Assembly (NCBI GenBank): GCA_029555085.1
Contig: JAKPTO010000014.1
Span: forward strand, 567-64,566
Direction of reading: 5' to 3'
DNA from: a bacterium
GTDB lineage: Bacteria; Patescibacteriota; Patescibacteriia; UBA1558; S5-K13
Length of the DNA stretch: 64,000 nt
A program made the position numbers and the translations under genes. A model generated the notes under the pieces. That model did not search any database and was not told the DNA's origin. It saw nothing but the letters and a program-made list of their open reading frames with translations. Positions within the stretch are counted from its first letter, which is position 1; each line of letters opens with the position of its first letter. Shown in pieces: positions 4,707 to 27,998 of this stretch.

Positions 4707-7409
4707 TTATTTTTTAAGATATTTTTTATTATAATGAATAGCCTTATTGATGGCATTTATTAAATCTTGTGGTTTTGCACTACCCTTAAATAGATAGTCA
4801 CTTGCTCCTAGATTTTTTGCTTTGACCCTATCTTGTTCTGTATTTAAATTACTAAACATTATAACTGGAATATTTTTTAATAATTTTTCCTTTTTAATTT
4901 TTTCTAGAAAGGTGTATCCCTGCTCAGCTACAACATTTATCATTCCGTCTTTCTCTTTTTTTCTTATAATAATATCCAAAATAACCACATCTATGTTTTT
5001 TGTTTTTAACATATCCTCTGCTTCGCTTAAATCATGTGTTGAATAAAAATTGTATCCATGTTTTTCGAAATAAATTTTGTATAGATCAACAATACTTTGC
5101 TCATCTTCAATGAATAAAATTGAACAATTATTTATTTTTGTATTTTTTATAACTGGCTTTGTATTGCTTACTGATTTTTGATTTGTTGATTTCAAATTTG
5201 ATATTTGCAATGCAAAACTGAATGTTGCTCCCTCGCCTATTTTAGAATCTTCTAATTTTAATTCTCCCCCACTATCTTCTACAATATTTTTTGCTATATA
5301 AAGTCCCAATCCAGAACCATCTGGATGAATTGATGAAGCGGTGGATCCTCTTGAAAATTTACTAAATAATTTTTCCCTATCTTCTTCAGATACTCCACAA
5401 CCAGTATCAGAGACCAAAATTTTTAAAAATTTTTTGCCATTTTTATTGATTTTTTCAAATCCAATATTTATTGATCCTTTTTCAGTATAGAAAACTGCAT
5501 TATCTAATAAATTTGAAATAACATGAGTAATTTTTTTCTGATCACATAACACTTTTGGTATTTTAAAACTTGGTTTAGTAAGGTTTATTTTTAAATTTCT
5601 AGTTTTGACTAATTTTAAATTTTTCTTTTCTTTTATCATGTCATTGATTATCTTCTCAATATTTGTTTCAATTAATGCCATTTCGATTTTCTGTCCCTCG
5701 AGTTCAAAAGCATCCCAAAAATCAGATATAGTATTACTCATTCTTTCTAATCCAATCGATGCTATTTCCAATCCCCTATTAACTTCTAACGATTTATCCT
5801 CTATCATAGAAAATGCATTTTTCATTATAGAAAGGGGTGTATTTAATTGATGATTTACAGTACGTAAAAAATCACTTTTCATATTTAAAAGTTCTTCTAA
5901 GTGTCTGTTCTTTTCTTTTATGTCTTTTGTTTGTTCTTCTACTTTGTATTTCAACTCCCTGTTAAATTTATCGAGTTCTCTTTTTTTGTCATTTATCTCA
6001 TCATATAATCTTGCATTTTCTATTGCTATAGATGCTTGAGAACCTAAAGCGCTTAAAAGTTCTAAGTCCTCTTTTGTATATGCGTCCTTTGATAATTTAG
6101 CGCCCAAAACAACAATACCTATTAAATTATTATTACTAATAAGCGGTAAGCACAAAGAGGCCTCGATGTGTTCCATGTATCTTTTTAAATCAGAGAATCC
6201 TTTGGAATCTTTTTTTGTCTTTGCATTTCTAGATAACAAACTCAATTCATCTAACAAGAGAATGCTTTTTGTTTTTTGTAAGTATTGAGTAAGAAAATTA
6301 TCTTGTACTAAACTAATACCATTTTGTTCATTAAAACCAATTGTTTTTGCTATTTGATAATGAATTGGTTTTGAATTTATATTAACAAGGAGAACGCCCG
6401 CTCTATCTAAATTCATTGCAGGTTTTATAGTGTCCACGATAAGAGAAATTATTTTATCTAAATCATTGTATTTATTTAATTCTTGGCTTAAAAATATTAA
6501 AGAATTGTGGTAATTTGTTAAATTTTTGAAAAAATATTTATCAGAAACATTTTTTAATAAAGTTCTAAGCCATGAAAATATTGTTACAAATCCTATCGCT
6601 AGAAATATACCAGCTATATACGAAGTATTATTAAAAATTCCACCAAAGGATTTTAAATAAATCCATGCTATTAAATAAAAAAGTCCATATACAAAAATAG
6701 AAACTAATAAATGTATAAATATTTTTTTAATAATAATTCTAATGTCCATCAATCTATATCTTGTAATTGCGTACCCTGTGAAACCTATAAAAAATAACGC
6801 CATTGATGGACCTATTGAACTTGCTCTACTATATCCTAGGGTTGGTAAAATCAAATTTAATAAAATTCCTAGAATTAGCGATATTAAAAAACCAATAAAA
6901 AGATATTTAATTTGGTATCTTTCAATTCCTGAGCTTTTTTTATAATTCTTAATAGTATTTACAAAAGACCAGCTAATATATACTGCAAGCAATATTGCCA
7001 TTGCCCAATAAAGAGGTCCTGGAGTAAATTCAGTTCCCCATGGTTCTATTTTAATATCAAGTACATTTAACTTCGTTGGAGATAAAATTATAATTAATAA
7101 ACTGGGTATAAAAGCAAAAAAGAGTTTTAACTTTGAAATTTTTTTATCCGACGGAAATACAATAGAAAACCATAGTAAAAAAAATGGTATTAGCGCTGGA
7201 CCAACGATAGACATTTTTGTCCAAAATAAAGCTAGATTATAATTTTTAGATAAATCTGCCATTAAAACAGATAATGTCCAGAATACTACTAAAAAAGACA
7301 AAATAGAAAGTATTCTATTTTGTCTACTTCTGAAATTTTGAAAAAATACTATTAGCCCCAAAAAACAGGCTAATAGTATTGTGATAATTGGAAGAATCAA
7401 AAAGCTCAT
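4707..7409 (-). CDS. hybrid sensor histidine kinase (multi-TM N-term, GAF, HisKA, HATPase_c, C-terminal REC)
   Basis: 900 aa; ~7 N-terminal TM helices; H-box region SDFLRTVNHQLNTPL; ATP-lid DTGCGVS...GSGLGLYIAKNIV; C-terminal receiver with ILFIEDE...DVVILDIII. Confidence 0.8.
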   Translation of the reverse strand: MSFLILPIITILLACFLGLIVFFQNFRSRQNRILSILSFLVVFWTLSVLMADLSKNYNLALFWTKMSIVGPALIPFFLLWFSIVFPSDKKISKLKLFFAFIPSLLIIILSPTKLNVLDIKIEPWGTEFTPGPLYWAMAILLAVYISWSFVNTIKNYKKSSGIERYQIKYLFIGFLISLILGILLNLILPTLGYSRASSIGPSMALFFIGFTGYAITRYRLMDIRIIIKKIFIHLLVSIFVYGLFYLIAWIYLKSFGGIFNNTSYIAGIFLAIGFVTIFSWLRTLLKNVSDKYFFKNLTNYHNSLIFLSQELNKYNDLDKIISLIVDTIKPAMNLDRAGVLLVNINSKPIHYQIAKTIGFNEQNGISLVQDNFLTQYLQKTKSILLLDELSLLSRNAKTKKDSKGFSDLKRYMEHIEASLCLPLISNNNLIGIVVLGAKLSKDAYTKEDLELLSALGSQASIAIENARLYDEINDKKRELDKFNRELKYKVEEQTKDIKEKNRHLEELLNMKSDFLRTVNHQLNTPLSIMKNAFSMIEDKSLEVNRGLEIASIGLERMSNTISDFWDAFELEGQKIEMALIETNIEKIINDMIKEKKNLKLVKTRNLKINLTKPSFKIPKVLCDQKKITHVISNLLDNAVFYTEKGSINIGFEKINKNGKKFLKILVSDTGCGVSEEDREKLFSKFSRGSTASSIHPDGSGLGLYIAKNIVEDSGGELKLEDSKIGEGATFSFALQISNLKSTNQKSVSNTKPVIKNTKINNCSILFIEDEQSIVDLYKIYFEKHGYNFYSTHDLSEAEDMLKTKNIDVVILDIIIRKKEKDGMINVVAEQGYTFLEKIKKEKLLKNIPVIMFSNLNTEQDRVKAKNLGASDYLFKGSAKPQDLINAINKAIHYNKKYLKK

Positions 7410-7418
7410 TTTTTAAAA

Positions 7419-7817
7419 TTACTTTTTAGCCGGATGAACATATTTTTCTCCTCTTAAAAAATGTTTTTCTTCTATTTCTTTTGGTTTAAAAATCTTGACT
7501 GTAAATTTTCTTACTATATCTGGATTATATTTTTTGCAACTATATATATCTATAGATGCAAATTTCTGTGGAGTTAATGTATGAATTGAGAATCCGGATT
7601 CTACAATTGGAATCCATCCTGATATACCAGCTTTATCTGGATATTTAATTGGATCTGTATAAACAATAAATGGTTGAGATTGTTTGTGTACTTTTATTAA
7701 ATCTGCTAAATCATTTAGATATTTATAGCAAATATCCATACTATCAAGGGCTTTAGGATCGCATCCGTAGAGATCTAAAACCATATGATATCCAAAAATT
7801 TTTCTAGGGTTTTTCAT
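7419..7817 (-). CDS. speH: pyruvoyl-dependent S-adenosylmethionine decarboxylase-like proenzyme (SpeH/SpeD class 1 family)
   Basis: 132 aa; VLDLYGC and ESGFSIHTLTP self-processing (Glu-Ser) motif resembling AdoMetDC proenzymes. Confidence 0.55.
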   Translation of the reverse strand: MKNPRKIFGYHMVLDLYGCDPKALDSMDICYKYLNDLADLIKVHKQSQPFIVYTDPIKYPDKAGISGWIPIVESGFSIHTLTPQKFASIDIYSCKKYNPDIVRKFTVKIFKPKEIEEKHFLRGEKYVHPAKK

Positions 7818-7901: not shown

Positions 7902-8510
7902 ATGACAAAGAAAAAAAATAATCTTCTGTCTAAAATTTATTTGCTTCTTTTTTGGATAAGGAAAGTAAAAAACAATAGGGACAAAGATTTATTCGCTGAT
8001 TTGTGGCAAAAAACTTGGCTTGATCAAGGATATGCCACGGAAACAACTTTAGCAGAATTAATAAAGCATTATCGCAAATATGATGAGTTTGCGGAAGACT
8101 TTATTCTTTATTTTCTTGGTAAACCAATTGGAACCATAAGATTAATTATTGGTAAATTATTGCCAGTTGTTGAAGATTTTGAAGTCGAGAGTCAATATAA
8201 AGATATCGCTAATATGGAAATCACACTAATGACTCTTGATCGTAAATTTCAAAGACATGATCATTTAGCATCTTTACTACTTATGAGAGTTTTTTATAGA
8301 TTTGCAATAAAAAACAAATTCTATGGAGCTGTCATGGCAACAGATGCTAGATTATTTAAACTTTTGAACATCATGGGTTTTCACATGATCAAAATTGGTC
8401 CTGAGAAATTCTATGAAGGTTCAATAACAATTCCGGCTTATATTGATCTTAGAGAGACAGAAAAAAAAGTCTCGAAAAGAAATCCGGATTTGTACAAATT
8501 TTTTTCATAA
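7902..8510 (+). CDS. GNAT-fold acyltransferase-like protein (possibly N-acyl amino acid synthase/autoinducer-synthase-like)
   Basis: 202 aa; strong SD; general similarity to the GNAT/acyl-transferase fold (FEVES...ITLMTLD...LLL...A.K....GF); family assignment tentative. Confidence 0.4.
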   Translation: MTKKKNNLLSKIYLLLFWIRKVKNNRDKDLFADLWQKTWLDQGYATETTLAELIKHYRKYDEFAEDFILYFLGKPIGTIRLIIGKLLPVVEDFEVESQYKDIANMEITLMTLDRKFQRHDHLASLLLMRVFYRFAIKNKFYGAVMATDARLFKLLNIMGFHMIKIGPEKFYEGSITIPAYIDLRETEKKVSKRNPDLYKFFS

Positions 8511-8537
8511 GAGACGAACTAGTTCGTCTCTTTTTAT
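8511..8537 (+). terminator. rho-independent terminator
   Basis: gagacgaact/agttcgtctc perfect palindrome followed by TTTTTAT. Confidence 0.7.
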
Positions 8538-8831: not shown

Positions 8832-11800
8832 TTATGCTTGTTTTTGACTATATTCATTATAGAGCACCTGAACCTCTTCCTTAGTTTTTAAACGTGGATC
8901 ATCTATCAATTTAATTTTTTTAGAGCTACCATTCACAGTGCGTTCGTATACAATTGTATGTGTTTTTATTTCTTGACCTTCCACAATCAGTGTGTAGTCA
9001 TTTTCTCGCACCTCAGTCGGAACAAAACCAGTTTTCTCCACAAGTTTTCTTGATGGAAGATTGATTTCAGAAACTCGAACCCGAAGACCTTTAAAATCCG
9101 GGATAGTATTTTTGGCGAAATCAAATATTTTGTTAATTGTTTCTGTTGCTACGCCCCTACCTTGCATTTCCGGAGTCAAGAACATACCACCTATATTGTA
9201 AAATCCAGGATTGTTTGGCAACTCATACAAAGCACTCAGACCTATTATCTCATCTTCTGTGTCGCGAAGTGCCCATTTGTAGTCAACGGTTTTTTCATCT
9301 TGTTTCTTTATGCGTTCTTTGAGAGCAAAATATGGGTAAAAAACATTGGAATTTTTTTCTGCCACACGATCAAGGTGCACGCGTTCAGCACGTGTTGTTT
9401 CAGTATAGTCATTGATACTACCGAAAGTAGTCACCATCTCCCCTGATTTAAATTTTGCTCCATAACCAACTTCATTCATAACTCGCTCAATGAGTTGTGT
9501 TGTTTGCGCGACCCATTCAACAGCATAAGCATTTGTTTTAAGTTGTCCATTCGCATCAAGCAACAAAGTACGGTCATTTTCGTTTGGTTCATTGCCAATT
9601 TTTATAACAGATTCATCTCGAATACCGTGCGTTTCTTCTAAAAAGGCAAGTGCAGTAGATTTATTTATTCCACGCATTACTAAATCTAGTTGCTCGCCTC
9701 TATTAGTTGTAATAACATCAAGTCCAAGCGATTCTGCCAATTGTTGAATTTGAGATATCTCATCTTCCAAACCTACGCGTGATACTTTAATACCTTCATC
9801 ATTTAAATCATAGAACGCGATATTGATTCTACGTTCATTGTTGTGAATATCAGCCAAAATATTTTCTCTGGAAAGCAGTGATTGAAGTCTGGTTATTTTT
9901 ATATCAATTTCTTCAATAGTAAAATTTTGAACTAGTTCACCGTTGTGATAATATGCCGCTCCGGTATCGGCACTAATCTCAAAATTAGCCGGATTCATTC
10001 CATTGGTTTCCAAGATTTCAGCAATAGAATCGTATTGTTTTCCCGAGCTAATCACAACCATAACACCGCGTTCATTAAGACGTTGTAATGATGCTACTGT
10101 TTTTGCGTTTATAAACCCTCCGTCTTCAAGTGTGCCGTTTAGATCCAGTATCACCGCTTTTGGTTTTTCTGTAAAAAATTGTTTGTCTTCTTCTTGTTCT
10201 TGCATTTCATAAGCTATACACAATTTACATAATTCAGAAAAATCATTCGCCAACTCTTGTAAGTTTCTGTTTTCAAGACCGTGAGATAGGTACTTTTTAC
10301 AAATTCGGACGAATTCACTATGAATAGGTTCAGGAATGCCTACATTTTTGTTTTGTATTGCGTCTAATTCTTTTTCAGGATATGGAAGGTTGCGCAATAC
10401 CTCCGTAGAATTAGCGGATTTTACTTGCAGTGGGAACATGCCAGGATTTGTTTTATATATTTTTTGAACTAATACACCTAGAATACGCATCATTTGCTTT
10501 GCTTCATATACTTGCTTGTCGCCCTCGTATAAAGGATCAATAATGCGATACGTCCCATCTTGCTCAACCATCACATTTCGTAAATTGAATTGACCAGCAA
10601 CGACGCCTCTTTCATGCAAGGAAGCAATATCCTTAATAACAGCTGAGATTTCTTTTAAAAACACAACCCATTCTTGTGGCTCTTTCATCTCGGCAACAAT
10701 ATCCTCTGCTTGATGGCCTTTAATAAGTTCCATAATGAGCATATTGCGTTCGCGGTCATATTCATAACATTGCGGAAAACGATTAGCCAAATCGCCGGCT
10801 TGTTGTTGTAATGCTTGAGTGTATTGATATTCTTCATCCAAATATTGCAAACCGATTTTAATAGCAACCTTTTTACCACTTTCCTCATTAATTGCTTCAA
10901 AAACTTTGGATTCCTTTCCTAAGCCAAGCATTTTTGAGAATTGATATTTCTTCCCATCTATAATAAGTCCGCCTTTTTGTTCAAAAATGGACATCCAGAT
11001 AGCTCGTTCTTGTGCAACAAAATCTTTAAATAATTTATCTTTTCGGTTTTCTGGAAAATTTAATCGTTGCCACACCTCCAGTAAACTTTGAAAATCTTTT
11101 GTGATTATTGGATGACCGGATTCGTGTCGCATACCGGTTATTCTACCAGCAATGCCATCGGCAAATTCAGGTAATCCGATCAAGACGCTGACAGTTTCTC
11201 CATTTTCTTTGGTTGCTGACAGAACAAACTGATTAAACATGTGTGAAATAGAGTACTCTGTCCAACGCTCAAACGGAATGGCGCGATATATTGATTCAAT
11301 ATCTGTATACACCTGAGGATTACAATAGTTTTCTACGGTTATTTTATTTTTCATATGTTCAAAAACTGCAATATCAATAACCCCATTTTCGTAATTTTGT
11401 AGTGCTGTATGCAACAGCTCTGTCCCAATAATATATGTCGCGACTTGTTCATCTTCTGGCCGTTTACCAAATACCGTGGTAATATCTAATGCTTCCAATA
11501 ATTTTATTTTTGAAATAAATCTTTTTACATTTTTATCGCACTGCTCTCCGTCTGGTAAGCCAAATTCCATGAGTTGATTGTTTGTAATCATTGACTTTAG
11601 AAACATCTCTCTTTGTTTAAGTAGTTGTTCACCTCTCTCAGTATATTCTATGGTTGCATTACCAAACTCACCGACATTTACTGAATATTCTTTATCCCTA
11701 ATGATTTGGCGATAGAAACTTAAAAGCATTCTAGAAAGCTCAAACTCTATTGATGATGCGTCACGTTCAGGACTGCCATTTATATCAATTAGTTGAATAT

Positions 11801-13919
11801 TGCCTTCTTGATCCATTAAAATATTTCCGAAATGTAGATCACCGTGAGTGAATTCAGGTATAACTGAATCGGAAAAATCACGATCAAGCATAGGAGTTGA
11901 TTTTTTTACCCACTCAAGCAACGTGCTCATATTAACTCGTGTTTCGCCGTTTATTTTTATTAGCTCATGGCGAGCAAATTCTTGTAAATTTTTATCGTCA
12001 ATATTTTGTAAGAACTCAAGACCGCGTTCAATTGAAGAAAGATGATGATCGGAAAAATATCGATCTTCCACATGTTTTTCTCCTTTTGACCACAGTTCTC
12101 GTTTTAAATCCATAAAAAGATTATTAAATTCGTTTTGTGTCACCTCTCTAGTTGGTTTTTTTCCAAAGTATTGGTCATCAAGCGAACCACCTTCAATAAA
12201 GGGTGATACATAATATACTTCATCATCTTTCACATTGCTATCAATCAATTCAGGTATAATGGAAATACCAACTTTCTGCATCTGACAGGTTCGTTGGATT
12301 TGTCGCAACAAATGTTCGTATTGATTTCCATACGGCGCTCTTTTTATGACAAATTTTTTACCTTGCTCGTTTTCCATAATGCTGACTGATGCGCCCATTG
12401 ATGTGCGTTTGTCCAAATTTCCTTCCTCGACCGGTTTTAATTGCTCATAGTAAAAAGGGTAATCATATTCTTCTATATAACGTGGGATGTATACATTATC
12501 TGAATCTCGCATCTGTTTATGTCCAAGAGGAATCCATTTATATCGTTCATTGCCATTTTTATCTCGCTTCAGAGCGCGGGTTGTCAATCGATGATGTGGA
12601 AAATAATCCCAACCGGGAACGAGCTGAAAGTTCATTTTTTTTGAGGTTCCATTTACGGTAATAGGTACAGCAGAAGGATTGAAGTCCAAAATACCCCGTC
12701 CATATTTTCCACCAGCATACTTTATTTCATTAAAGGCGCGATAATAAAATGCCATTCTTTTAATGTATTCTTCTTTGGAGTGTTTAGTATTAAACATATC
12801 TGGAGAAAGTGTTCCACGATAAAACGACATCCAACTTTCAAGACTGCCCAATATATCAATGGATTCTATAAGTTCGTCCAGTTCTGTCGCTTGATTTTTT
12901 TGCAAAGCATCTTCTATTTCCAAATTTTTTCGCTCTTCTTGCTTTTCCTTCATGATTTTCATAAGAATGCTGAACAGTTCCCCGTTTTCTCGCAGAGTAT
13001 CAATTGGGCTTTGATCGTCTTTAATATCTGGTATATTGAATTTAGCAAATTCGGAACGATGAGAAGAGATGTATTTGTTTATCTTGGTGACGGCTGATTC
13101 ATATTGTTGCTGTACGGTATCTTTTTTTTCTCTTAGACGATATTGCCATTTTTTTTCGTCCTGATCTTCAACATTTATCAAACATCGTCTTACTAATTCC
13201 GCCGCGTCAATAATTTTAACCGGATTTTCTCTATTATCCATATCTTCTTTGTTGCGACCGGACTGAGCATATGCCTGCTCATTAAGTTTTTCTAAAATTT
13301 TAAGCGTTTCCTGTGTCTCGTCTTGGTATCTTCCCAATGCACGATATAAATTACCTTCATATCCAATATTAATTTGCAGGCCAGGTGAATAAATCGTTTC
13401 TGCGCCACGTGCGATTTGTTGCAAGTTGGAAAAAGCGAGATAATTTGCCATATCAGGCAAGAGTTGTCTATCAGAAATGTCCGGATTTTTAAATTTTGGA
13501 GAAAATGAAAGGCCAAAAAAAACAATAGGTTGATTTTCTCTTATGGCTTCAACCATCGTGTGTATTATATTGGCGTCGTATTCTGGACTTCTATATGTAC
13601 TGCCAGTTCTTCGTATTTCCCCTGGACGTCCAGATAAATATTCAAGCAGAGCAACAGCTGTTACCTCGGGTGTTTTTTCAAATTCTCGTTTTTCTAAATT
13701 AGTAAGACCCTCAGGAGTATATTTTTCATAATATGATCGTAGAGAATCCTTAATGCGTCTGGAAATCTGTCCAGGAAATATCGTACTTTCGGGAATAAAA
13801 GGAGGTTTGTACTCGGGAGTTGTTGGGTATTCATTAATTTTATGTGATTCGTGGTTTTGCTCGATTATTTTTTGTTCTTGTTCTTTTTGTTGGTAATGTA
13901 AAGCATTTTTTTCTAGCAT
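8832..13919 (-). CDS. giant multidomain protein: PvcA/Dit1 isonitrile-synthase-like domain + APH-like kinase + second kinase-like domain + HAD hydrolase + C-terminal GNAT
   Basis: 1695 aa. aa~120-470: QPIVFFGLSFSPKFKNPD...LLPDMANYLAF...IYSPGLQINIGYEGNLY aligns by eye with PvcA QPIHFILPAFPAKSPNP...LPDMGEQVAL...VYAPGARITICSDGRVF. aa~505-720: THGDLHFGNILMD...LIDINGSPE (APH/choline-kinase Brenner motif). aa~990-1150: LGLGKESKVF...KKVAIKI glycine loop + VAIK but catalytic loop reads VVAGQFNLRN (no HRD Asp). aa~1254-1465: VILDLNGTL...VISSGK...INKST...GNEPNEND (HAD motifs, DxN not DxD). aa~1520-1660: GGMFLTPEMQGRGVATE GNAT motif A. Higher GC than flanks. Confidence 0.6.
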   Translation of the reverse strand: MLEKNALHYQQKEQEQKIIEQNHESHKINEYPTTPEYKPPFIPESTIFPGQISRRIKDSLRSYYEKYTPEGLTNLEKREFEKTPEVTAVALLEYLSGRPGEIRRTGSTYRSPEYDANIIHTMVEAIRENQPIVFFGLSFSPKFKNPDISDRQLLPDMANYLAFSNLQQIARGAETIYSPGLQINIGYEGNLYRALGRYQDETQETLKILEKLNEQAYAQSGRNKEDMDNRENPVKIIDAAELVRRCLINVEDQDEKKWQYRLREKKDTVQQQYESAVTKINKYISSHRSEFAKFNIPDIKDDQSPIDTLRENGELFSILMKIMKEKQEERKNLEIEDALQKNQATELDELIESIDILGSLESWMSFYRGTLSPDMFNTKHSKEEYIKRMAFYYRAFNEIKYAGGKYGRGILDFNPSAVPITVNGTSKKMNFQLVPGWDYFPHHRLTTRALKRDKNGNERYKWIPLGHKQMRDSDNVYIPRYIEEYDYPFYYEQLKPVEEGNLDKRTSMGASVSIMENEQGKKFVIKRAPYGNQYEHLLRQIQRTCQMQKVGISIIPELIDSNVKDDEVYYVSPFIEGGSLDDQYFGKKPTREVTQNEFNNLFMDLKRELWSKGEKHVEDRYFSDHHLSSIERGLEFLQNIDDKNLQEFARHELIKINGETRVNMSTLLEWVKKSTPMLDRDFSDSVIPEFTHGDLHFGNILMDQEGNIQLIDINGSPERDASSIEFELSRMLLSFYRQIIRDKEYSVNVGEFGNATIEYTERGEQLLKQREMFLKSMITNNQLMEFGLPDGEQCDKNVKRFISKIKLLEALDITTVFGKRPEDEQVATYIIGTELLHTALQNYENGVIDIAVFEHMKNKITVENYCNPQVYTDIESIYRAIPFERWTEYSISHMFNQFVLSATKENGETVSVLIGLPEFADGIAGRITGMRHESGHPIITKDFQSLLEVWQRLNFPENRKDKLFKDFVAQERAIWMSIFEQKGGLIIDGKKYQFSKMLGLGKESKVFEAINEESGKKVAIKIGLQYLDEEYQYTQALQQQAGDLANRFPQCYEYDRERNMLIMELIKGHQAEDIVAEMKEPQEWVVFLKEISAVIKDIASLHERGVVAGQFNLRNVMVEQDGTYRIIDPLYEGDKQVYEAKQMMRILGVLVQKIYKTNPGMFPLQVKSANSTEVLRNLPYPEKELDAIQNKNVGIPEPIHSEFVRICKKYLSHGLENRNLQELANDFSELCKLCIAYEMQEQEEDKQFFTEKPKAVILDLNGTLEDGGFINAKTVASLQRLNERGVMVVISSGKQYDSIAEILETNGMNPANFEISADTGAAYYHNGELVQNFTIEEIDIKITRLQSLLSRENILADIHNNERRINIAFYDLNDEGIKVSRVGLEDEISQIQQLAESLGLDVITTNRGEQLDLVMRGINKSTALAFLEETHGIRDESVIKIGNEPNENDRTLLLDANGQLKTNAYAVEWVAQTTQLIERVMNEVGYGAKFKSGEMVTTFGSINDYTETTRAERVHLDRVAEKNSNVFYPYFALKERIKKQDEKTVDYKWALRDTEDEIIGLSALYELPNNPGFYNIGGMFLTPEMQGRGVATETINKIFDFAKNTIPDFKGLRVRVSEINLPSRKLVEKTGFVPTEVRENDYTLIVEGQEIKTHTIVYERTVNGSSKKIKLIDDPRLKTKEEVQVLYNEYSQKQA

Positions 13920-14045: not shown

Positions 14046-14097
14046 ATATTATTTTTATTTTCTCACAATTCAAACAAAAAGTAAAATAAAAAAATCG
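14046..14097 (-). promoter_or_regulatory. L module: sigma70-like promoter (TTGAAT-N16-TAATAT on minus strand) upstream of the giant gene; near-identical copy at 19359-19405
   Basis: ~50 nt atattattttt(t)attttctcacaattcaaacaaaaagtaaaataaaaa repeated ~5.3 kb apart, each 65-180 nt upstream of a minus-strand start codon (13919 and 19288). Confidence 0.5.
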
Positions 14098-14205: not shown

Positions 14206-15198
14206 TTATTTCCTTACAAAAGTATTACAAGTGGAACAAGGAATGTCCACTAGATCTTTATTATTTGAATGAATTAATTTTTTGGAGAAAAAATTTCTTG
14301 AAAGTTTATAATATTTATTATTCCAAATATCTTTCAATTTTTGATTCAATATATTTCCATAAGAAAATCTATCAAAGTCCCCTCCGCAACATGGATACAA
14401 GCTTCCATCTGGTCTTATCATGCATCCTAAATATAACCAAAAACAAGTTCGTTTATATGTTTTTGTTTTAGGGCTATCATTATTATCATCATATCCCAAA
14501 TTTTCTTGTCTATATGTAATTCTGTCTACTTTTATTTCTCTCAAAAATTCATCAATCTGATTTAACTCGTCTTTTATATGATTAAAAGTGACAACCTGAA
14601 CATCTACAATGGGATATTTCTTTTTGTTTTTTATTTTATACTCCATTACATCCCTTAAGCCCTGTTTTACAATTTCTACATCTCCACCTTGTCTATACTG
14701 AGAGTATTTCTCTTGTGAAAAACCATCCAAACATGGTTCTAATACTGTAAGACCTGAGTCAAATAATTTTTTAATATCATCTTTTTTAAATAGATTAAAG
14801 TTTGTACTAATAAGAGTGCTTATGTTATTTTTGTTTGCATAAGATATCATCTCATATATATCTTTGTTTAGAAGTGGTTCGCCCATATCATACAATGATA
14901 CACGAAGCGCGTATTTTTTTATTTTATCAATAATACTTTTAAAATCTTCTAGTGTCATTATTCTTTTTTCTTTTGTATTGGTCTGCCATGACTGACACGA
15001 TGGGCATCTTAAATTGCACGCAGAACATGGATCTATTCTATAAATAAATGGCCTCGAGATACACCTTCCTCGTCTAAATGTCATTTCAAGAAATGAAATA
15101 ATAACATTTATGGCCTTAGTAAATGTCAAAAATGGGAGTAATGAAAAAAAATGTCTTTTAATGAATAAACCTAGCTTATTATAAAATGAAAGCTTCAT
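14206..15198 (-). CDS. radical SAM protein with SPASM/twitch-like Cys-rich C-terminus
   Basis: 330 aa; CNLRCPSC radical-SAM cluster motif (within CSACNLRCPSCQ); C-terminal CFWLYLGC...YPCCGGD...CSTC Cys cluster pattern; N-terminal hydrophobic segment; same strand as and downstream of mod-res. Confidence 0.6.
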   Translation of the reverse strand: MKLSFYNKLGLFIKRHFFSLLPFLTFTKAINVIISFLEMTFRRGRCISRPFIYRIDPCSACNLRCPSCQSWQTNTKEKRIMTLEDFKSIIDKIKKYALRVSLYDMGEPLLNKDIYEMISYANKNNISTLISTNFNLFKKDDIKKLFDSGLTVLEPCLDGFSQEKYSQYRQGGDVEIVKQGLRDVMEYKIKNKKKYPIVDVQVVTFNHIKDELNQIDEFLREIKVDRITYRQENLGYDDNNDSPKTKTYKRTCFWLYLGCMIRPDGSLYPCCGGDFDRFSYGNILNQKLKDIWNNKYYKLSRNFFSKKLIHSNNKDLVDIPCSTCNTFVRK

Positions 15199-15569: not shown

Positions 15570-17708
15570 TCACATAGTTACCTTCTTACAAAAGTTCACA
15601 AACTCGTCTTTTGATAATAATTTTTCGTTACCTTCCACATACTGAAAAATACGCCATTTATCATCTCGCAAAATCGGTAAATAAAATATCTGATTGGTTA
15701 GTTTAGAAGCTTGTTTATATGCTTTTTTCAATTCTTCCAACTTCGTTTTATAGATATTATTATCAAAACCCCCGACCATATTTGCAGAAATATTTACACT
15801 TTTTACTTCAAAAATATGTATTCTATTAAAGCTGTCTTTCATCACAAAGTCTGGATATGAAGAATGCGGTGCGCCGAGATAATACTCAAACTTTATCGGC
15901 GAGTTTGCCACATAATTTTTACCCCACAGATACACTTGTTTCGTATCTAAAAACTCTGGTTCTGTTTCTCCAAATAAATCAGTTGCTCCGGCTTTTGGAT
16001 TCTTCCTCCCAACTGTTACTCTTTTACCAACTCGTCCATCGCCAACCGCTACATCATCTTTTGCAAGGTCCTTTAAGATACTCGTCCACGCACGCTCCGC
16101 TTCACTATCAAATGCAAACTTCTCTTTGCCGTCATTGCGTTTCCATACCCAGTCGCCAATATCTACATAATTGCCGTTGTCGGTGTAATGTGAAGTCAGA
16201 GCAAAGGAAACTTCTACTTCTTTTCCGTTTTCGTCTTTTACTACTTCCATGCTTTTCTCATAATCATTCACATATTGACTGCTTTCATTTGCTACGGTAT
16301 CAATATTTTCCACAAACTCACGCCATTTTGTATAAGTCGTCGCATAATTTTCGCCCATTTCTCGCACGCTGTTTTCGGCTTTCACAAAATTTCTCCATAA
16401 AGAAAAAATAGAACTCGGAGTAGATACGATTGATTGTTTTTTCAAGAATGTCGTTAGATTAAAACTGGCCTTTTTGGTCAAGGATTTTAACCGTGTTGTC
16501 TTAATTTTGATCTCATTAGTAATAATTTCGCTATCTTGCCACAATTTCACGCCAAAACTTTTTCGCAAGTCTCCGGGAACAATGCCCCAAATCCATGCGG
16601 TCATAGCTAGTCTTTGTGCGTCTTCTGATAATGATTCAAAATCAAGTAGTCGCGGGTTCCGTCTTACTCGCCCCATCACTTGCTCATCCAATTGCTTACT
16701 CTTACTATCCCGTATTTGAAAAAGCATACAGGCGCGTGGAATATCCCACCCCTCAGTAATCACCATTTTGAAAATGATAATATCAATCGTACTTGAATTT
16801 TCTTTTGCATAATCTTTCCACTTGCTCACAGGCAACTTTTTGGCCTTAAAAGTGTCGTTGGTGTCGCATTGCTTCTCGTTATTAACAATTAGCATCCACT
16901 TTAGATCCGTGTGTTCAGCTTTTTCCAGTTCCTTTTTAATCTCGGCAATTTCAGCATCCGCTTTGTCTTTGTTGCTAATCTGGATAATTAGACATGGGTT
17001 TACGCCCAGCATGTTGCGGTAATCTTTTTTTATTTCTTCAAACTTCGTAATCGCATCAGTCACTTTGGCATCAGGGTCGTCAACCAACTCAATATCTTTG
17101 ATCAGTTTCGCATTTACCGCGTCATCGTTTTTAATCTCAACATCAGGGTGTTGTCCACGCGAAAGTTTTGGCGTGGCAGAGAAGTTGTATATTTTGGTAA
17201 AGAATTTTTCTGATAAACTATCCAGATTGTTGGTGGCAATATGGCACTCGTCTTTTATTAAATAGACTTTTTTATCCAAGCCACCTATCAATTCCGTCCC
17301 AGTTACTGTGCGTAAAAATCCTTCCATTGCTCCTTGCATCAGTCGTCCGCCTTTTTTATATAAATCGCGAGGTAAAAGATAAACATTATAGTCGGTTGGC
17401 ACAAACAATCTCTCTTCACCTGCAATTTCGCTACTAATTAAATATGGCTTCAATTCCGGAAAATTTCCTTTTACTGAGTATTGTTGAAACTTCTCATAAT
17501 TTTGTGTGGCGAGATCGCCTTTTGAAAGTGTAGAAACAAGAAAAATCACATTTTTATCAGCTGATAAAATGCGGTTCATCATATCCGCCATCATATAGGT
17601 TTTACCACTTCCTGTTGGCGCTTTGAAAGTTATCTCATCTTGTGCAGAGGTGAGTTCAACAAGAGAAGTGACGGCGTTTTGCTGTAGGTCTATTGCTTCT
17701 TGTTTCAT
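15570..17708 (-). CDS. res: Type III restriction enzyme Res subunit (SF2 helicase + C-terminal PD-(D/E)xK nuclease)
   Basis: 712 aa; Walker A APTGSGKT, DEAH-like LIKDECH, C-terminal PDFVMKD...IFEVKS nuclease motif; start 2 nt after mod stop. Confidence 0.75.
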   Translation of the reverse strand: MKQEAIDLQQNAVTSLVELTSAQDEITFKAPTGSGKTYMMADMMNRILSADKNVIFLVSTLSKGDLATQNYEKFQQYSVKGNFPELKPYLISSEIAGEERLFVPTDYNVYLLPRDLYKKGGRLMQGAMEGFLRTVTGTELIGGLDKKVYLIKDECHIATNNLDSLSEKFFTKIYNFSATPKLSRGQHPDVEIKNDDAVNAKLIKDIELVDDPDAKVTDAITKFEEIKKDYRNMLGVNPCLIIQISNKDKADAEIAEIKKELEKAEHTDLKWMLIVNNEKQCDTNDTFKAKKLPVSKWKDYAKENSSTIDIIIFKMVITEGWDIPRACMLFQIRDSKSKQLDEQVMGRVRRNPRLLDFESLSEDAQRLAMTAWIWGIVPGDLRKSFGVKLWQDSEIITNEIKIKTTRLKSLTKKASFNLTTFLKKQSIVSTPSSIFSLWRNFVKAENSVREMGENYATTYTKWREFVENIDTVANESSQYVNDYEKSMEVVKDENGKEVEVSFALTSHYTDNGNYVDIGDWVWKRNDGKEKFAFDSEAERAWTSILKDLAKDDVAVGDGRVGKRVTVGRKNPKAGATDLFGETEPEFLDTKQVYLWGKNYVANSPIKFEYYLGAPHSSYPDFVMKDSFNRIHIFEVKSVNISANMVGGFDNNIYKTKLEELKKAYKQASKLTNQIFYLPILRDDKWRIFQYVEGNEKLLSKDEFVNFCKKVTM

Positions 17709-17710
17709 AA

Positions 17711-19288
17711 TTATTCGTCTTCAAGAGTTTTTTGTGTATTTTCAAAATTTTCACACACCCATTTTATTTTTTCTTTTACTCCAAGTTTTTCCTGCCCGTA
17801 CAAAGTTTCATCTATTTTTTCAAATGGTTCGTCAGAGTACGGTGCTACAGTGGCAATATCATAAACATCAAGATTGCCGTCGAGTGGTTTATTTTTCTCG
17901 TTCCACTTAAAATCTTTACTTCCGTCATAACATTCACCAGTCATTACTCGTTTGAGACGTTTGCTTGTTACATCATTCACAATTCCGTTTGGTGTGGTGT
18001 CGGTTATCTCATTGGCAGTGGCAAGAATAAACTGTCTTTTTCCACCATCTTCCTTATTAAGTTCCAGTACTGCTTGCCCAGTTGTCCCTGAACCAGCAAA
18101 GAAGTCGAGGATAATTAAATTTCTGTTAACTAAACCAATTAAATATTTGATTAGTGATATAGGTTTTGGGTTATCAAATATATTATTTTCTATTATGCTT
18201 ATCAATTCCTTCCCACCATCTTCATTTGTCCCAACCCCACATTCTTCTTTATTTATTATATTTGACGGTTTTTTCTTTCTTTCTCCCTCTCTTTCATACC
18301 TTATAGAGAATTCATTACTTTTTATATAAAATACTGTGCCATTTTTAACCTCTTTGTCTACTGTCTCTTGAGTCCATTTAAAATTACCTCTCAACTCAAA
18401 GTCCTTATCTGCTTTACCGTTTGCTATATTTATATTAGTTAGAAGTTGAGTTTTCTTTTTATAACCATCTTTAAATTCCCCATTAATCTTAAAAATAACA
18501 GAATCCTTATTAAATTTTATTGTTCGTATTGGGTTTCCACTGTTTAACAATGGCATATCTCCACCTACTATTATACCCGCACTCAAACCCTCGTCTCTTT
18601 TTCCATTTTGATAACATAAGACATATTCATATTTTTTTCTTATATCTTTACCCAAGCTGGGGGGGGTAGCGGTTTTATTCCACATAAAATTTGCTAAGAA
18701 ATTACTCTCCTCGAATACCTCATCAAAAAGCCCCTTTACATACGCTTGATTTTTATCATCAATACTACAAAAGATTACCCCATTATCACTTAAAAGCTGT
18801 CTAGCAAGAACTAGGCGCGGATAAAGCATAGAAAGCAGGTTGTCTCTCGTGATGGCATTGTTGTAATTTGTCTGTGCAAACTCTCCCATAGAGTCCTTGC
18901 CATATGGCGGATCAATATAGATCACATCAATCTTTCCGCGGTATTCAATCAGCAAATTGAGAAGTGCATCATAGTTATCTCCGATGATGAGTTTGTGTGT
19001 TTGTGCGTTCTTGTCTTGTACAAAACTCAATTCATTGTTTTTCTTAAAATACTTTATCGTGTCGGTCATTTTCTCCAGTCGTTTGTCAAAGTGAAAGCCT
19101 GTGCGTTTATATGTTGTTCCAAGCTCGGCGATCATAATCGCTTCATTGATAGTATCTGTATTTGTAATGAGTTTTTTCAAGAGATCAGCATTCGTTTTTT
19201 CTATAATCTTGTCGGCAATACGTTTATCTATCTCGGTTATGAGATCGTCTTTAACTTTTCTTATATTGTTTGTTGTAGTATCTTTCAT
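17711..19288 (-). CDS. mod: Type III R-M Mod DNA methyltransferase (beta-class, N6A/N4C)
   Basis: 525 aa; motif IV IDPPYGKD precedes motif I ILDFFAGSGTTG (beta-class order as in Type III Mod); contains a C8/G8 tract. Confidence 0.8.
   Translation of the reverse strand: MKDTTTNNIRKVKDDLITEIDKRIADKIIEKTNADLLKKLITNTDTINEAIMIAELGTTYKRTGFHFDKRLEKMTDTIKYFKKNNELSFVQDKNAQTHKLIIGDNYDALLNLLIEYRGKIDVIYIDPPYGKDSMGEFAQTNYNNAITRDNLLSMLYPRLVLARQLLSDNGVIFCSIDDKNQAYVKGLFDEVFEESNFLANFMWNKTATPPSLGKDIRKKYEYVLCYQNGKRDEGLSAGIIVGGDMPLLNSGNPIRTIKFNKDSVIFKINGEFKDGYKKKTQLLTNINIANGKADKDFELRGNFKWTQETVDKEVKNGTVFYIKSNEFSIRYEREGERKKKPSNIINKEECGVGTNEDGGKELISIIENNIFDNPKPISLIKYLIGLVNRNLIILDFFAGSGTTGQAVLELNKEDGGKRQFILATANEITDTTPNGIVNDVTSKRLKRVMTGECYDGSKDFKWNEKNKPLDGNLDVYDIATVAPYSDEPFEKIDETLYGQEKLGVKEKIKWVCENFENTQKTLEDE
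18659..18666. repeat. G8 (coding-strand C8) homopolymer inside mod
   Basis: ctgg+gggggg read directly; encodes ...ATPPS...; highly unusual in a ~27% GC background. Confidence 0.8.
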
Positions 19289-19358: not shown

Positions 19359-19441
19359 CAATATTATTTTTTATTTTCTCACAATTCAAACAAAAAGTAA
19401 AATAAAAATTGCCATTTAATAGACAATTTTATATATCATTG
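19359..19441. repeat. composite L+R module (promoter for mod operon plus hairpin) immediately downstream of tRNA-Ser
   Basis: L part 19359-19405 matches 14046-14097 (TTGAAT-N17-TAATAT on minus strand); R part 19397-19441 matches 8561-8606. Confidence 0.55.
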
Positions 19442-19453
19442 TGATAATTGTTT

Positions 19454-19545
<92 letters not shown>

Positions 19546-19583: not shown

Positions 19584-19658
19584 TGGCTGGGGAGGTAGGG
19601 TTCGAACCTACGCATGTCGGCTTCAAAGGCCGATGCCTTACCACTTGGCTACTCCCCA
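19584..19658 (-). tRNA. tRNA-Gln (anticodon UUG), CCA encoded
   Basis: revcomp TGGGGAGTAGCCAAGTGGTAAGGCATCGGCCTTTGAAGCCGAC...GGTTCGAACCCTACCTCCCCAGCCA; closely resembles canonical bacterial tRNA-Gln. Confidence 0.8.
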
Positions 19659-26477: not shown

Positions 26478-27998
26478 TTATTTTCTATTTATATATTGTT
26501 TTTCATAATATTCAAGGTATTCGCCAGATTTTATTTCTTTCCACCAATTAATATTTTCTTTGTACCATTTTAAAGTTTCTTTTATTCCATCTTCAAAATT
26601 TATTTTTGGTTCCCAACCTAATTCATTTTTAATTTTTGAAAAGTCAATTGCATAACGTCTATCATGACCTCGTCTATCTGGAACCCGTTCAATCATTTCT
26701 TCGCCTTTATTAAAATAGTTCAAAATCAAATGAGTTATTTCTAGATTTGTTTTTTCACTATCTCCACCAACACAATATGTTTCTCCGATTTTTCCTTCAT
26801 GCAATATTAAATCCACTGCGCTGGAGTGATCATCAACATGAATCCAATCGCGGATATTCAATCCATCACCATAAAGAGGAATTTTTTTGTCTTCAATTAA
26901 GTTAGTTGCGAAAAGTGGAATTAATTTTTCTGGAAATTGATATGGGCCGTAATTATTTGAACAATTTGAAATTGTTATTGGGAGTCCGAATGTGTGAAAA
27001 TAAGCACATACTAGATGATCTGATGCTGCTTTTGAAGAGGAATATGGACTTCTTGGATTATACGCCATTAGTTCATGAAATTTTCCATCAGCTCCAAGTT
27101 CTCCAAATACTTCATCTGTTGATATGTGGTGGAATCTTTTTATGCCTAATTCTTTGGCAATTCTAAGTAATACATTTGTTCCCAGTATGTTTGTTCTTAT
27201 AAAAGTATCTGGATCCATGATTGATCTATCAACATGAGATTCTGCTGCAAAATGAACTACCCAGTCGCAATCTTTCATCGCCTTTTTTACATCTTCTTCG
27301 TTACATATGTCTCCTTTTATAAATGTATAATTAGGATTATCTTGTAATGATTCAAGATTTTTTAAGTTACCAGCATAAGTTAATTTATCCAAATTTACAA
27401 TTTTATAATTTGGATATTTTTTTAACATGTAATAAATAAAATTCGTTCCTATAAATCCTGCCCCACCAGTAATTAATATTTTTCTTTCCTTATTTGTACT
27501 CTGGGATAAATAATTATCTTTTGTTTTTTGTTGATATAGTTCTTCTCTTATCTTCATCCAAATTTTTCCAAGTTCATTTCTTCCTGTTCTGTTTTCTCCC
27601 CAGCCCCAAAAATCATCATACGGAGAATCCTCTATTATTAATTTGTTTTCTGTTTGTAGAAGTTTGTGTAAGACATACGGATTTTGTTCTACTTTGTTTC
27701 TGATGATATCCTCCATTATTGGAATTTTTATATCTTCCCAATTTTTTGGCACTTTGTCTTTATTAGCTTTAGCGATTTTGTAAGCATCATGGGCAGATTT
27801 TGCTTTATGTATTTGTTCAACTAGATCTGGGTCTGTTTCAAAAAAATGAGATGCCTGATAAGCGTGTTCAGATGTTTGCCATGTTCTTCCGCACCACTCA
27901 ACCTGAAAACTAGAAAAATTAGAAAAAACATAGAATTCTCTTTCAAAAAAACCAATTATGTTTCCAGATGTTTCAAGTTTTGAATCTCTAAATTGCAT
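26478..27998 (-). CDS. rmlB: fusion: N-terminal NADAR/YbiA (DUF1768) domain + dTDP-glucose 4,6-dehydratase
   Basis: aa 1-150 FSNFSSFQVEWCGRTWQTSEHAYQASHF and DDFWGWGENRTGRNELGKIWMKIREEL closely match E. coli YbiA; aa 170-506 KILITGGAGFIGTNF...YSSSKAASD RmlB SDR signature. Confidence 0.75.
   Translation of the reverse strand: MQFRDSKLETSGNIIGFFEREFYVFSNFSSFQVEWCGRTWQTSEHAYQASHFFETDPDLVEQIHKAKSAHDAYKIAKANKDKVPKNWEDIKIPIMEDIIRNKVEQNPYVLHKLLQTENKLIIEDSPYDDFWGWGENRTGRNELGKIWMKIREELYQQKTKDNYLSQSTNKERKILITGGAGFIGTNFIYYMLKKYPNYKIVNLDKLTYAGNLKNLESLQDNPNYTFIKGDICNEEDVKKAMKDCDWVVHFAAESHVDRSIMDPDTFIRTNILGTNVLLRIAKELGIKRFHHISTDEVFGELGADGKFHELMAYNPRSPYSSSKAASDHLVCAYFHTFGLPITISNCSNNYGPYQFPEKLIPLFATNLIEDKKIPLYGDGLNIRDWIHVDDHSSAVDLILHEGKIGETYCVGGDSEKTNLEITHLILNYFNKGEEMIERVPDRRGHDRRYAIDFSKIKNELGWEPKINFEDGIKETLKWYKENINWWKEIKSGEYLEYYEKQYINRK

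Follow-up and report, generated by a model that had tools for sequence, protein, structure and literature searches.

What could a single protein of 1695 amino acids, assembled from five enzyme-like domains, be doing in a member of the Patescibacteria (Candidate Phyla Radiation, CPR), bacteria thought to have almost no biosynthetic capacity? The question is raised by one gene in a 64,000-nucleotide (nt) stretch of contig JAKPTO010000014.1 (GenBank assembly GCA_029555085.1; positions 567 to 64,566 of the forward strand), which we refer to as the window. A preliminary description, made from the sequence alone, had noted an uninterrupted open reading frame (ORF) there, and had read in its product, in this order, a PvcA/Dit1-type isonitrile synthase domain, two kinase-like domains, a HAD domain and a GNAT acetyltransferase. 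The ORF is as described and lies on the minus strand, Pfam and NCBIfam searches give the same five domains in the same order (Table 1), and the minimal genome in which it was said to sit agrees with a CPR host. The alanyl-tRNA synthetase encoded in the window shares 82-86% identity with proteins that carry the NCBI label 'Patescibacteria group bacterium'. We conclude that the protein is a real, intact multi-enzyme of a CPR genome, and that most of it forms the core of a family found well beyond this genome. The observation is thus confirmed, while the interpretation first placed on it is partly supported. The reading that we favor, with a probability of roughly 45%, is that the protein catalyzes several reactions of a single small-molecule pathway, whose substrates would be a sugar phosphate and an amine resembling an amino acid.

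Table 1. Domains of the 1695-residue protein and repeats near its gene, in window coordinates.
Feature	Coordinates	Strand	Remarks
Whole ORF, 1695 aa + stop	8832..13919	minus	ATG start, uninterrupted
Variable N-terminal leader, residues 1-84	13668..13919	minus	6% invariant columns, 23% identity to distant orthologs, hydrophilic by eye
PvcA/IsnA-superfamily domain (N-domain), residues 85-495, new subfamily	12435..13667	minus	conserved SPKFKN 140-145, PDMAN 155-159, IGYEG 185-189, FPHHR 440-444, YPFYY 487-491
Helical insertion inside N-domain, residues ~251-358	12846..13169	minus	predicted long helices, 18% identity to distant orthologs
Kinase 1, residues 496-860, APH/protein-kinase-like fold	11340..12434	minus	K526, HGDLHFGN 692-699 (window 11823-11846), LIDING 710-715
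Linker ('mid') domain, residues 861-985	10965..11339	minus	invariant W..NFPEN motif, no family match
Kinase 2, residues 986-1250, Bud32/RIO-like protein-kinase fold	10170..10964	minus	AGQFNLRN at window 10575-10598
Cof-type HAD, residues 1251-1490	9450..10169	minus	motif I DLNGT (window 10131-10145), motif IV GNEPNEND (window 9573-9596)
GNAT acetyltransferase, residues 1491-1660	8940..9449	minus	acetyl-CoA motif QGRGVA 1586-1591
41-nt perfect direct repeat, left copy	14052..14092		in upstream region of the large gene; listed for context, outside the enzyme
41-nt perfect direct repeat, right copy	19368..19408		beside tRNA-Ser/tRNA-Gln

Because stop codons are frequent in DNA of 29% guanine plus cytosine (GC), a run of 1695 open codons is impossible as a product of chance. 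The start codon is credible as well, given that homologs open with the same M-x-E-K. Among 5.8 billion proteins searched, six were full-length, collinear homologs, three of them 72-75% identical to the window protein and three 43-44%, and a genome scan added a seventh, from Candidatus Saccharibacteria, at 41% identity. All seven have the identical domain order and are drawn from independent NCBI, JGI, ENA and Logan assemblies; the same architecture is found at greater distance in a protein from a metagenomic contig (P0010) and in proteins of Candidatus Omnitrophota. The names that the homologs bear in databases ('GNAT family N-acetyltransferase', 'HAD family hydrolase/RIO-like kinase', 'diphthine-ammonia ligase') each fail to capture this architecture. 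At the deepest comparison, all six domains, the linker included, are comparably constrained (39-56% identity, 22-38% invariant columns), conservation is highest in the PvcA-like domain and kinase 2 (37-38% invariant columns), and what is free to vary is the N-terminal leader, the internal helical insert and the C-terminal tail. Translation confirmed the motifs that had been quoted earlier, namely HGDLHFGN (692-699), LIDING (710-715), LGLGKESK (998-1005), VAIK (1018-1021), AGQFNLRN (1108-1115), DLNGT (1259-1263) and GNEPNEND (1442-1449). In the Saccharibacteria copy, which comes from yak duodenum (L012:~4513), we noted a frameshift within kinase 1 near residue 770 that leaves ORFs of 791 and 843 amino acids, the sign of either a mistake in assembly or a pseudogene.

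The conserved core of the family consists of two blocks, both of them obligate: the PvcA-like domain with kinase 1 (block A), and the linker with kinase 2 and the HAD domain (block B). Fused or split, this arrangement recurs in CPR, Omnitrophota and metagenomic contigs. In two of the split versions (P0007 and P0070) the protein comprises block A only and the next ORF encodes block B; at locus L014 an 846-aa block A protein is followed by an overlapping block B ORF that is 38% identical to the window protein. The linker is always encoded together with kinase 2 and HAD in these split versions. At loci L019-L021 an operon runs from a 1276-aa protein without assigned family through block A (863 aa) and block B (649 aa) to a 522-aa protein with DUF4116 and a Dph6-like PP-loop amidoligase, and then a NUDIX gene. 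In the Omnitrophota, the same parts are fused into single proteins, whose recorded lengths run from 2322 aa for a complete one to no less than 3598 aa in partial records. What follows block B is exchangeable: it is a GNAT in the CPR and in P0010, and in the Omnitrophota type its place is taken by an ATP-dependent amidoligase of Dph6-like kind, as seen in P0018 and, together with the NUDIX gene, in the L019 operon. P0010 (1783 aa) is a full fusion lacking the helical insert, and we noted that it has some 340 extra C-terminal residues (~1440-1783) in which a GHCMGG sequence resembles the nucleophile elbow of an alpha/beta-hydrolase with Cys.

The architecture had been thought undescribed. It does lie outside the known range, in that only three architectures of isocyanide synthases (ICS) have been recorded across the tree of life, monodomain, ICS-dioxygenase and ICS-nonribosomal peptide synthetase (NRPS) (PMC5974471), and we found neither this domain combination nor any paper tying isonitrile enzymes to CPR in the searchable literature. 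It is not, however, unique to this genome, as the relatives listed above make clear. The ICS-dioxygenases (IsnAB, XanB) and the ICS-NRPS enzyme CrmA are similar to the window protein in placing an isocyanide-synthase fold at the N-terminus of a multidomain enzyme (PMC5974471), but the partners there are TauD dioxygenase or NRPS modules, whereas here they are kinase-fold, HAD and GNAT domains.

The N-terminal domain is the one on which the first interpretation was built. A phmmer comparison with the PvcA structure (PDB 3e59) recovers, over residues 125-200, the alignment to PvcA that had been drawn by eye. Pfam DIT1_PvcA (PF05141) matches residues 152-281 with 30.7 bits, above its gathering cut-off of 26.4, covering profile positions 30-168 of 273 only, while the NCBIfam equivalog for PvcA, L-tyrosine isonitrile synthase (NF045653), scores 18.8 bits against a cut-off of 600 bits. 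A profile built from seven N-domains retrieved PIsnA (9dh4/9dhm, E=1e-5) and PvcA (3e59, E=7e-4) from the PDB; PvcA and PIsnA are the top matches of the domain in both sequence and structure, and it has the same fold as the solved structures. In an exhaustive hidden Markov model search of 1.84 billion representatives, which gathered 57 family members, its nearest relatives appeared at E=1e-30 to 1e-87 and canonical isonitrile synthases only near E=1e-5. These nearest relatives comprise proteins that share the fusion (P0010; P0018, 2455 aa), proteins with N-domain and kinase 1 (P0007, P0017), and stand-alone proteins of about 340-373 aa. By profile-profile comparison, the N-domain matches the stand-alone subfamily at E=1e-68 over 312 columns, with the insert skipped, and the canonical synthases at E=1.5e-13 over 99 columns, in the N-terminal half only; the stand-alone subfamily matches the canonical synthases at E=3.5e-19 over 261 columns in both halves. 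Since the stand-alone subfamily bridges both halves to the canonical synthases, the entire N-domain is homologous to the PvcA fold. Judged by these comparisons, it forms a separate subfamily of the PvcA/IsnA superfamily and is not of PvcA/IsnA type in the narrow sense.

With IsnA, PvcA and PIsnA (PF05141; PDB 3e59, 9dh4, 9dhm), the window protein shares the fold and the motifs PI-F, F-x-P/S-K-x-x-N, PDMA, Y-PG-x-I-x-(D/E)G and a C-terminal P-x-H. Several canonical positions are kept, namely K142 in F-x-P-K, D156 in PDMA, E188-G189 as the acidic-Gly pair, and H443 as the last His of TPWH. Four others are changed: PDMAE to PDMAN, (S/C)DG to YEG, the His of RLSxH to Asn (ITVN), and the Trp of TPWH to His, and the RLSxH position is variable within the domain's own subfamily. 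The window protein further differs from these enzymes in a helical insert of about 108 aa, which the stand-alone relatives also lack, in having four further catalytic domains fused to it, and in the missing oxygenase partner. That no iron/2-oxoglutarate oxygenase or cytochrome P450 is encoded nearby had been pointed out before, and we found none (IsnB/PvcB type oxygenase or P450) near the window gene or in any of about ten related loci. In the canonical family, a carbon of ribulose-5-phosphate becomes bonded to the amine nitrogen of Tyr or Trp (PMC7949033). Given that the subfamily is separate and that canonical motif positions are changed, isonitrile formation by the N-domain is unproven, and the comparisons neither support nor exclude it.

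The neighborhoods of the stand-alone relatives offer some observations of their own. A gene for a HAD_2 hydrolase lies directly upstream of each of two of them (P0013 and P0014). Another, P0026 (L017:8001-9047, L018:5578-6624), lies between nadD-nadE and pncB, which are salvage genes of nicotinamide adenine dinucleotide (NAD), and a nearby Spo0A gene suggests that its host is a Firmicute. Taken with the NUDIX and PP-loop amidoligase genes of the L019 operon and an ADP-ribosylglycohydrolase at locus L006, the context of P0026 hints at a link of the subfamily to ribose-phosphate or NAD metabolism, which is too thin to be treated as anything other than a lead.

Kinase 1 has a complete catalytic set, invariant in all relatives (K526, H692-G-D694-LHFG-N699 and D712), and we predict from these intact residues that it is an active kinase. 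Its family matches are weak. Pfam APH (PF01636) scores 18.9 bits over residues 521-712, under the cut-off of 23.2, and Pfam ABC1 scores 23.0 bits over the catalytic loop against a cut-off of 22.9, the two together spanning residues 521-736; NCBIfam APH(3') reaches E=1.9e-4 over the N-lobe and catalytic loop (residues 509-713; 21 bits against 205), and an NCBIfam Kdo kinase matches at E=3e-7. An AlphaFold2 model of kinase 1 and the linker, made from a seven-sequence alignment, had a mean confidence score (pLDDT) of 45.6, which was too poor for a fold search, and it was not used.

Kinase 2 is recognized by Pfam Pkinase (PF00069; residues 992-1128, 48 bits against a cut-off of 31.7), its NCBIfam matches are Bud32/RIO/LanKC-type kinases, and its best PDB matches are a Bud32-like kinase (9x4g, E=7e-6) and Rio2 (1tqi). 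It retains what the Bud32/RIO atypical kinases have in the way of Gly loop (LGLGKESK), beta3 Lys (Lys1021 of VAIK), catalytic-loop Asn (Asn1115) and metal-binding, DFG-equivalent Asp (Asp1128). It differs from them in the catalytic loop, where AGQ aligns with the HGD of 9x4g and Rio2, so that Gln1110 stands where the HRD/HGD loop would have its catalytic Asp. The sequence GQFNL[RK]N does not vary among the CPR proteins, P0010, the Omnitrophota protein P0018 and the split operon versions, and a Gln that is fixed across phyla points to a specialized site and not to drift. Pseudokinases that bind ATP are well known, among them JAK JH2, HER3 and MLKL.

The HAD domain is altered in a similar manner. 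Pfam Hydrolase_3 (PF08282) matches residues 1256-1453 with 43 bits against a cut-off of 20.9, and the TIGR00099 subfamily model scores 45.8 bits, below its 137-bit cut-off. With the Cof-type HAD-IIB sugar phosphatases, to which it is nearest (PDB 3niw; YbiV, 1rlm; SupH, 2hf2), it shares the Pfam/NCBIfam subfamily, the motif I nucleophile (Asp1259, kept and invariant), the motif II Ser, the motif III Lys and the terminal ND of motif IV. In the alignments to these three structures DLDGT pairs with DLNGT, and in those to 3niw and 1rlm GDxxND pairs with GNEPNEND, which shows that the general acid/base Asp two residues after the nucleophile (D+2) has become Asn, and that motif IV of the CPR version has Asn for its first Asp and a two-residue insertion (GNEPxxND). 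Every member of the family that we examined (CPR proteins, P0010, P0018 and the split operon versions) has Asn at D+2, within a conserved D-x-N-(G/N)-T. We know of no characterized HAD phosphatase with a DxN motif. The preliminary description had drawn attention to both sets of odd residues, with kinase 2 as a possible pseudokinase or atypical kinase. The residues are confirmed; they are not degenerate, since their invariance across phyla makes the Gln of kinase 2 and the DxN of HAD signatures of the family and not marks of decay. Each domain, then, comes from a known superfamily, and what is new is the isonitrile-synthase-fold subfamily, the fixed Gln-for-Asp kinase loop and the fixed DxN HAD.

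The GNAT domain is matched by Pfam Acetyltransf_3 and Acetyltransf_1 (PF13302 and PF00583; residues 1537-1633, 46.9 and 34.8 bits, both above cut-off) and by NCBIfam RimI. It resembles the SpeG and RimJ-RimL GNATs in its best PDB and Pfam matches and in its acetyl-CoA motif, but the best of these, to SpeG spermidine N-acetyltransferase, stands at only E=1.4e-4, so the acceptor cannot be read from it, and within the family it is the GNAT that can be replaced. A gene for S-adenosylmethionine decarboxylase, a polyamine enzyme, lies about 1 kb from this SpeG-like domain in the window, and the pairing is not kept in other loci.

How might these parts work together? By analogy with IsnA/PvcA, the N-domain would link a phosphorylated keto-pentose, through its carbonyl carbon, to a primary amine, whether or not an isonitrile results. 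Kinase 1, which is never found apart from the N-domain, may use ATP to phosphorylate a hydroxyl of the intermediate or of the sugar that feeds the reaction. Kinase 2 keeps its ATP-binding residues without a catalytic base, HAD keeps its nucleophile without a general acid, and the two are always encoded together, which suggests a pair that handles the phosphoryl group in an unusual way. It may form a long-lived aspartyl-phosphate, or act on a substrate with a good leaving group, such as an acyl- or pyrophosphate, with kinase 2 acting as the nucleotide-binding partner of HAD; ordinary hydrolysis of a sugar phosphate by this pair would be less likely. The tail enzyme would then neutralize the remaining charge, by N-acetylation of an amine where it is a GNAT and by amidation of a carboxylate in Omnitrophota. 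That one tail would acetylate an amine and the other amidate a carboxylate argues for an amino-acid-like substrate, the HAD_2 genes upstream of two stand-alone relatives give modest support for a phosphorylated one, and a HAD nearest to sugar phosphatases beside a GNAT nearest to SpeG gives the whole a small-molecule flavor. A bolder version would make the protein a biosynthetic machine of ultra-small, host-dependent bacteria, producing a metabolite derived from an amine and a pentose (perhaps an isonitrile or an N-formyl compound) for use in host-cell interaction, with kinase 2 and HAD as a new phosphoryl-handling pair in which, for example, a kinase fold loads a long-lived aspartyl-phosphate on HAD. 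We hold this version to be unlikely as a whole.

Several points weigh against the small-molecule pathway. The order of reactions is entirely our inference, and the changed N-domain positions may include essential ones of the canonical enzymes. Kinase 1 can be placed, on sequence grounds, at the superfamily level and in no specific kinase family; its profile matched PDB entries in the catalytic loop only, at E=0.04 or above, and no family stood out. Kinase 2 is nearest to protein kinases and atypical kinases. Just two of the four stand-alone loci have the HAD neighbor, and a metagenome scan for further stand-alone relatives yielded two loci only, neither of them with one. Lastly, the gene occurs in variable, mobile-looking regions near restriction-modification, toxin-antitoxin and transposase genes, a setting that fits a conflict system equally well.

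The preliminary description had also called the protein self-contained, which we doubt. In six of the seven related CPR loci, the large gene is followed by a translationally coupled gene of 719-785 aa, which starts no more than 17 nt from its stop codon or overlaps it; L003:5628-7985 is an example. The products of this partner gene are 32-90% identical among themselves and have no significant Pfam, PADLOC or PDB match. Their best PDB profile match is an arylamine N-acetyltransferase (4dmo), with the catalytic Cys and His aligned, at an E-value of 0.05 that is not significant; residues Cys117, His158 and Asp177 are invariant. The N-terminus of the partner is possibly arylamine-N-acetyltransferase-like, with a Cys-His-Asp triad, and we offer this as a lead and not as a finding. 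By tblastn there is no trace of the partner in the window. At the locus of P0001, the closest relative, it is cut to a 144-aa ORF (L004:6415-6849), in which tblastn recovers about the first 88 residues at 64% identity, so the loss is partial there and complete in the window. Given the partner in six of seven related loci and the remnant in L004, self-containment is not the ancestral state of the CPR system. We also considered the 1276-aa gene at the head of the L019 operon as a counterpart of the CPR partner, and rejected it because the two are unrelated by BLASTP.

As to the genomic setting, the large gene has a GC content of 36.4%, compared to 28.7 +/- 4.0% for 33 other ORFs, and at third codon positions (GC3) 27.7% compared to 19.3 +/- 5.4%. 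What had been called a GC-rich island is therefore elevated in GC, but only moderately so. The 41-nt direct repeats bracket a 5.3-kb segment with genes for a radical-SAM/SPASM protein (14206-15198), a Type III restriction protein (15570-17708) and the corresponding modification protein (17711-19288), and genes for tRNA-Ser (19455-19544) and tRNA-Gln (19584-19658) are directly beside it. This segment looks like a separate cassette that was inserted between the tRNA genes and the region upstream of the large gene, duplicating its target or attachment sequence. Relatives of the large gene adjoin transposases, HepT-MNT toxin-antitoxin genes and Csx3/PIN/HD genes, and we regard the gene as an accessory and probably mobile trait.

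In such a setting, the protein could belong to a conflict system, either anti-phage defense or an episymbiont-host factor, that acts on macromolecules, with the kinase folds sensing or modifying proteins, the GNAT acetylating a protein or a tRNA-linked amine, and the partner as effector. The GC-deviant region beside a Type III restriction-modification cassette and tRNA genes, the neighbors of the relatives, the variable presence of the partner gene and the occurrence of the family in host-dependent ultra-small lineages (CPR and Omnitrophota) are all consistent with this. In PADLOC-DB, kinase 2 matches the kinases of the PD-T4-6 and Mad6 defense systems at E=1e-12 to 1e-10 over residues ~990-1128, from the N-lobe to the DFG-equivalent Asp. 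These matches, however, amount to generic protein-kinase similarity and are limited to kinase 2, with no other domain of the fusion and no partner protein matching any defense model. Furthermore, kinase 2 lacks the catalytic Asp and so is no conventional protein kinase, the fusion is without a typical effector domain such as a nuclease, pore or NADase, and the HAD, GNAT and PvcA-like domains are nearest to small-molecule enzymes. On balance we think that a conflict system has a minor share of the probability, well behind the small-molecule pathway.

Slightly less probable again, in our view, is the interpretation with which the preliminary description began, a bona fide Tyr/Trp isonitrile synthase whose fused kinase, HAD and GNAT domains tailor or detoxify an isonitrile amino acid without an oxygenase. 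The Pfam score above cut-off, PvcA and PIsnA as best matches in sequence and fold, and the Lys, Asp, acidic-Gly and His positions kept superfamily-wide all argue for it, and NCBI labels a fragment of the Omnitrophota relative 'L-tyrosine/L-tryptophan isonitrile synthase family protein'. It is difficult to reconcile with an equivalog score of 18.8 against 600 bits, with profile-profile similarity to canonical enzymes that is limited to the N-terminal half, and with changed motif residues, one of which, the RLSxH His, varies within the subfamily. About ten loci are without an IsnB/PvcB-type oxygenase or P450, and one stand-alone relative sits among NAD salvage genes and not in a secondary-metabolite cluster.

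We consider it improbable that the protein is a xenobiotic or antibiotic resistance enzyme of the bifunctional AAC/APH type, which would phosphorylate and acetylate an amine compound, with the partner adding a third modification. AAC(6')-Ie/APH(2'')-Ia does combine a GNAT with an APH-fold kinase on one polypeptide, and the single chain of the window protein likewise includes both a GNAT and an APH-like kinase whose active site is intact; the genomic context is mobile, and the partner found in related loci has an arylamine N-acetyltransferase as its best PDB match (E=0.05). But the domain order of the window protein is different, it has three extra domains, and its similarity to APH is at the superfamily level only and weak (E=1e-3 to 2e-4). 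The GNAT is a replaceable module, exchanged for an amidoligase in Omnitrophota, and resistance would not account for the PvcA-like domain and kinase 2, in which conservation is highest. An assembly chimera or decaying pseudogene, for which one could cite the lost partner here, its truncation in the closest relative and the frameshifted Saccharibacteria copy, is effectively refuted by the identical domain order in independent NCBI, JGI, ENA and Logan assemblies, by 5085 nt of 36% GC sequence without stop or frameshift, and by catalytic and signature motifs that are all intact.

A conserved five-enzyme fusion of 5 kb occupies about 0.5-1% of such a genome, and so it likely matters for the lifestyle of its host. 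The altered motif residues in this new branch of the isonitrile-synthase fold bear on the chemistry that is available to the fold, and the natural fused, split and tail-swapped versions (GNAT or amidoligase) are ready-made constructs for dissecting the pathway.

Other genes in the window were considered as pathway partners and rejected. The radical-SAM/SPASM gene, a candidate oxidoreductase, lies inside the repeat-bounded cassette, is separated from the large gene by a terminator-like hairpin and is missing from all related loci. A 202-aa ORF convergent with the large gene (7902-8510, plus strand) matches the N-acyl amino acid synthase FeeM at 23.3 bits, under the cut-off of 27, and has a strong hairpin terminator behind it (8509-8532); neither this ORF nor the S-adenosylmethionine decarboxylase gene (7419-7817, minus strand) is conserved beside any homolog. 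Directly downstream of the decarboxylase gene is a 900-aa hybrid histidine kinase with seven transmembrane helices and GAF, HisKA, HATPase and receiver domains (4707-7409, minus strand). Farther away, a 506-aa ORF (26478-27998, minus strand) encodes a NADAR domain fused to a sugar-nucleotide dehydratase of the GDP-mannose-dehydratase/epimerase type. A 626-aa ORF (59114-60994, minus strand) has FlgD_ig and Por_Secre_tail domains, the latter a C-terminal sorting signal of the type IX secretion system kind, with a GC content of 38.3% and a GC3 of 35.2%, and this elevated GC in a Patescibacteria genome suggests that it is possibly another acquired gene.

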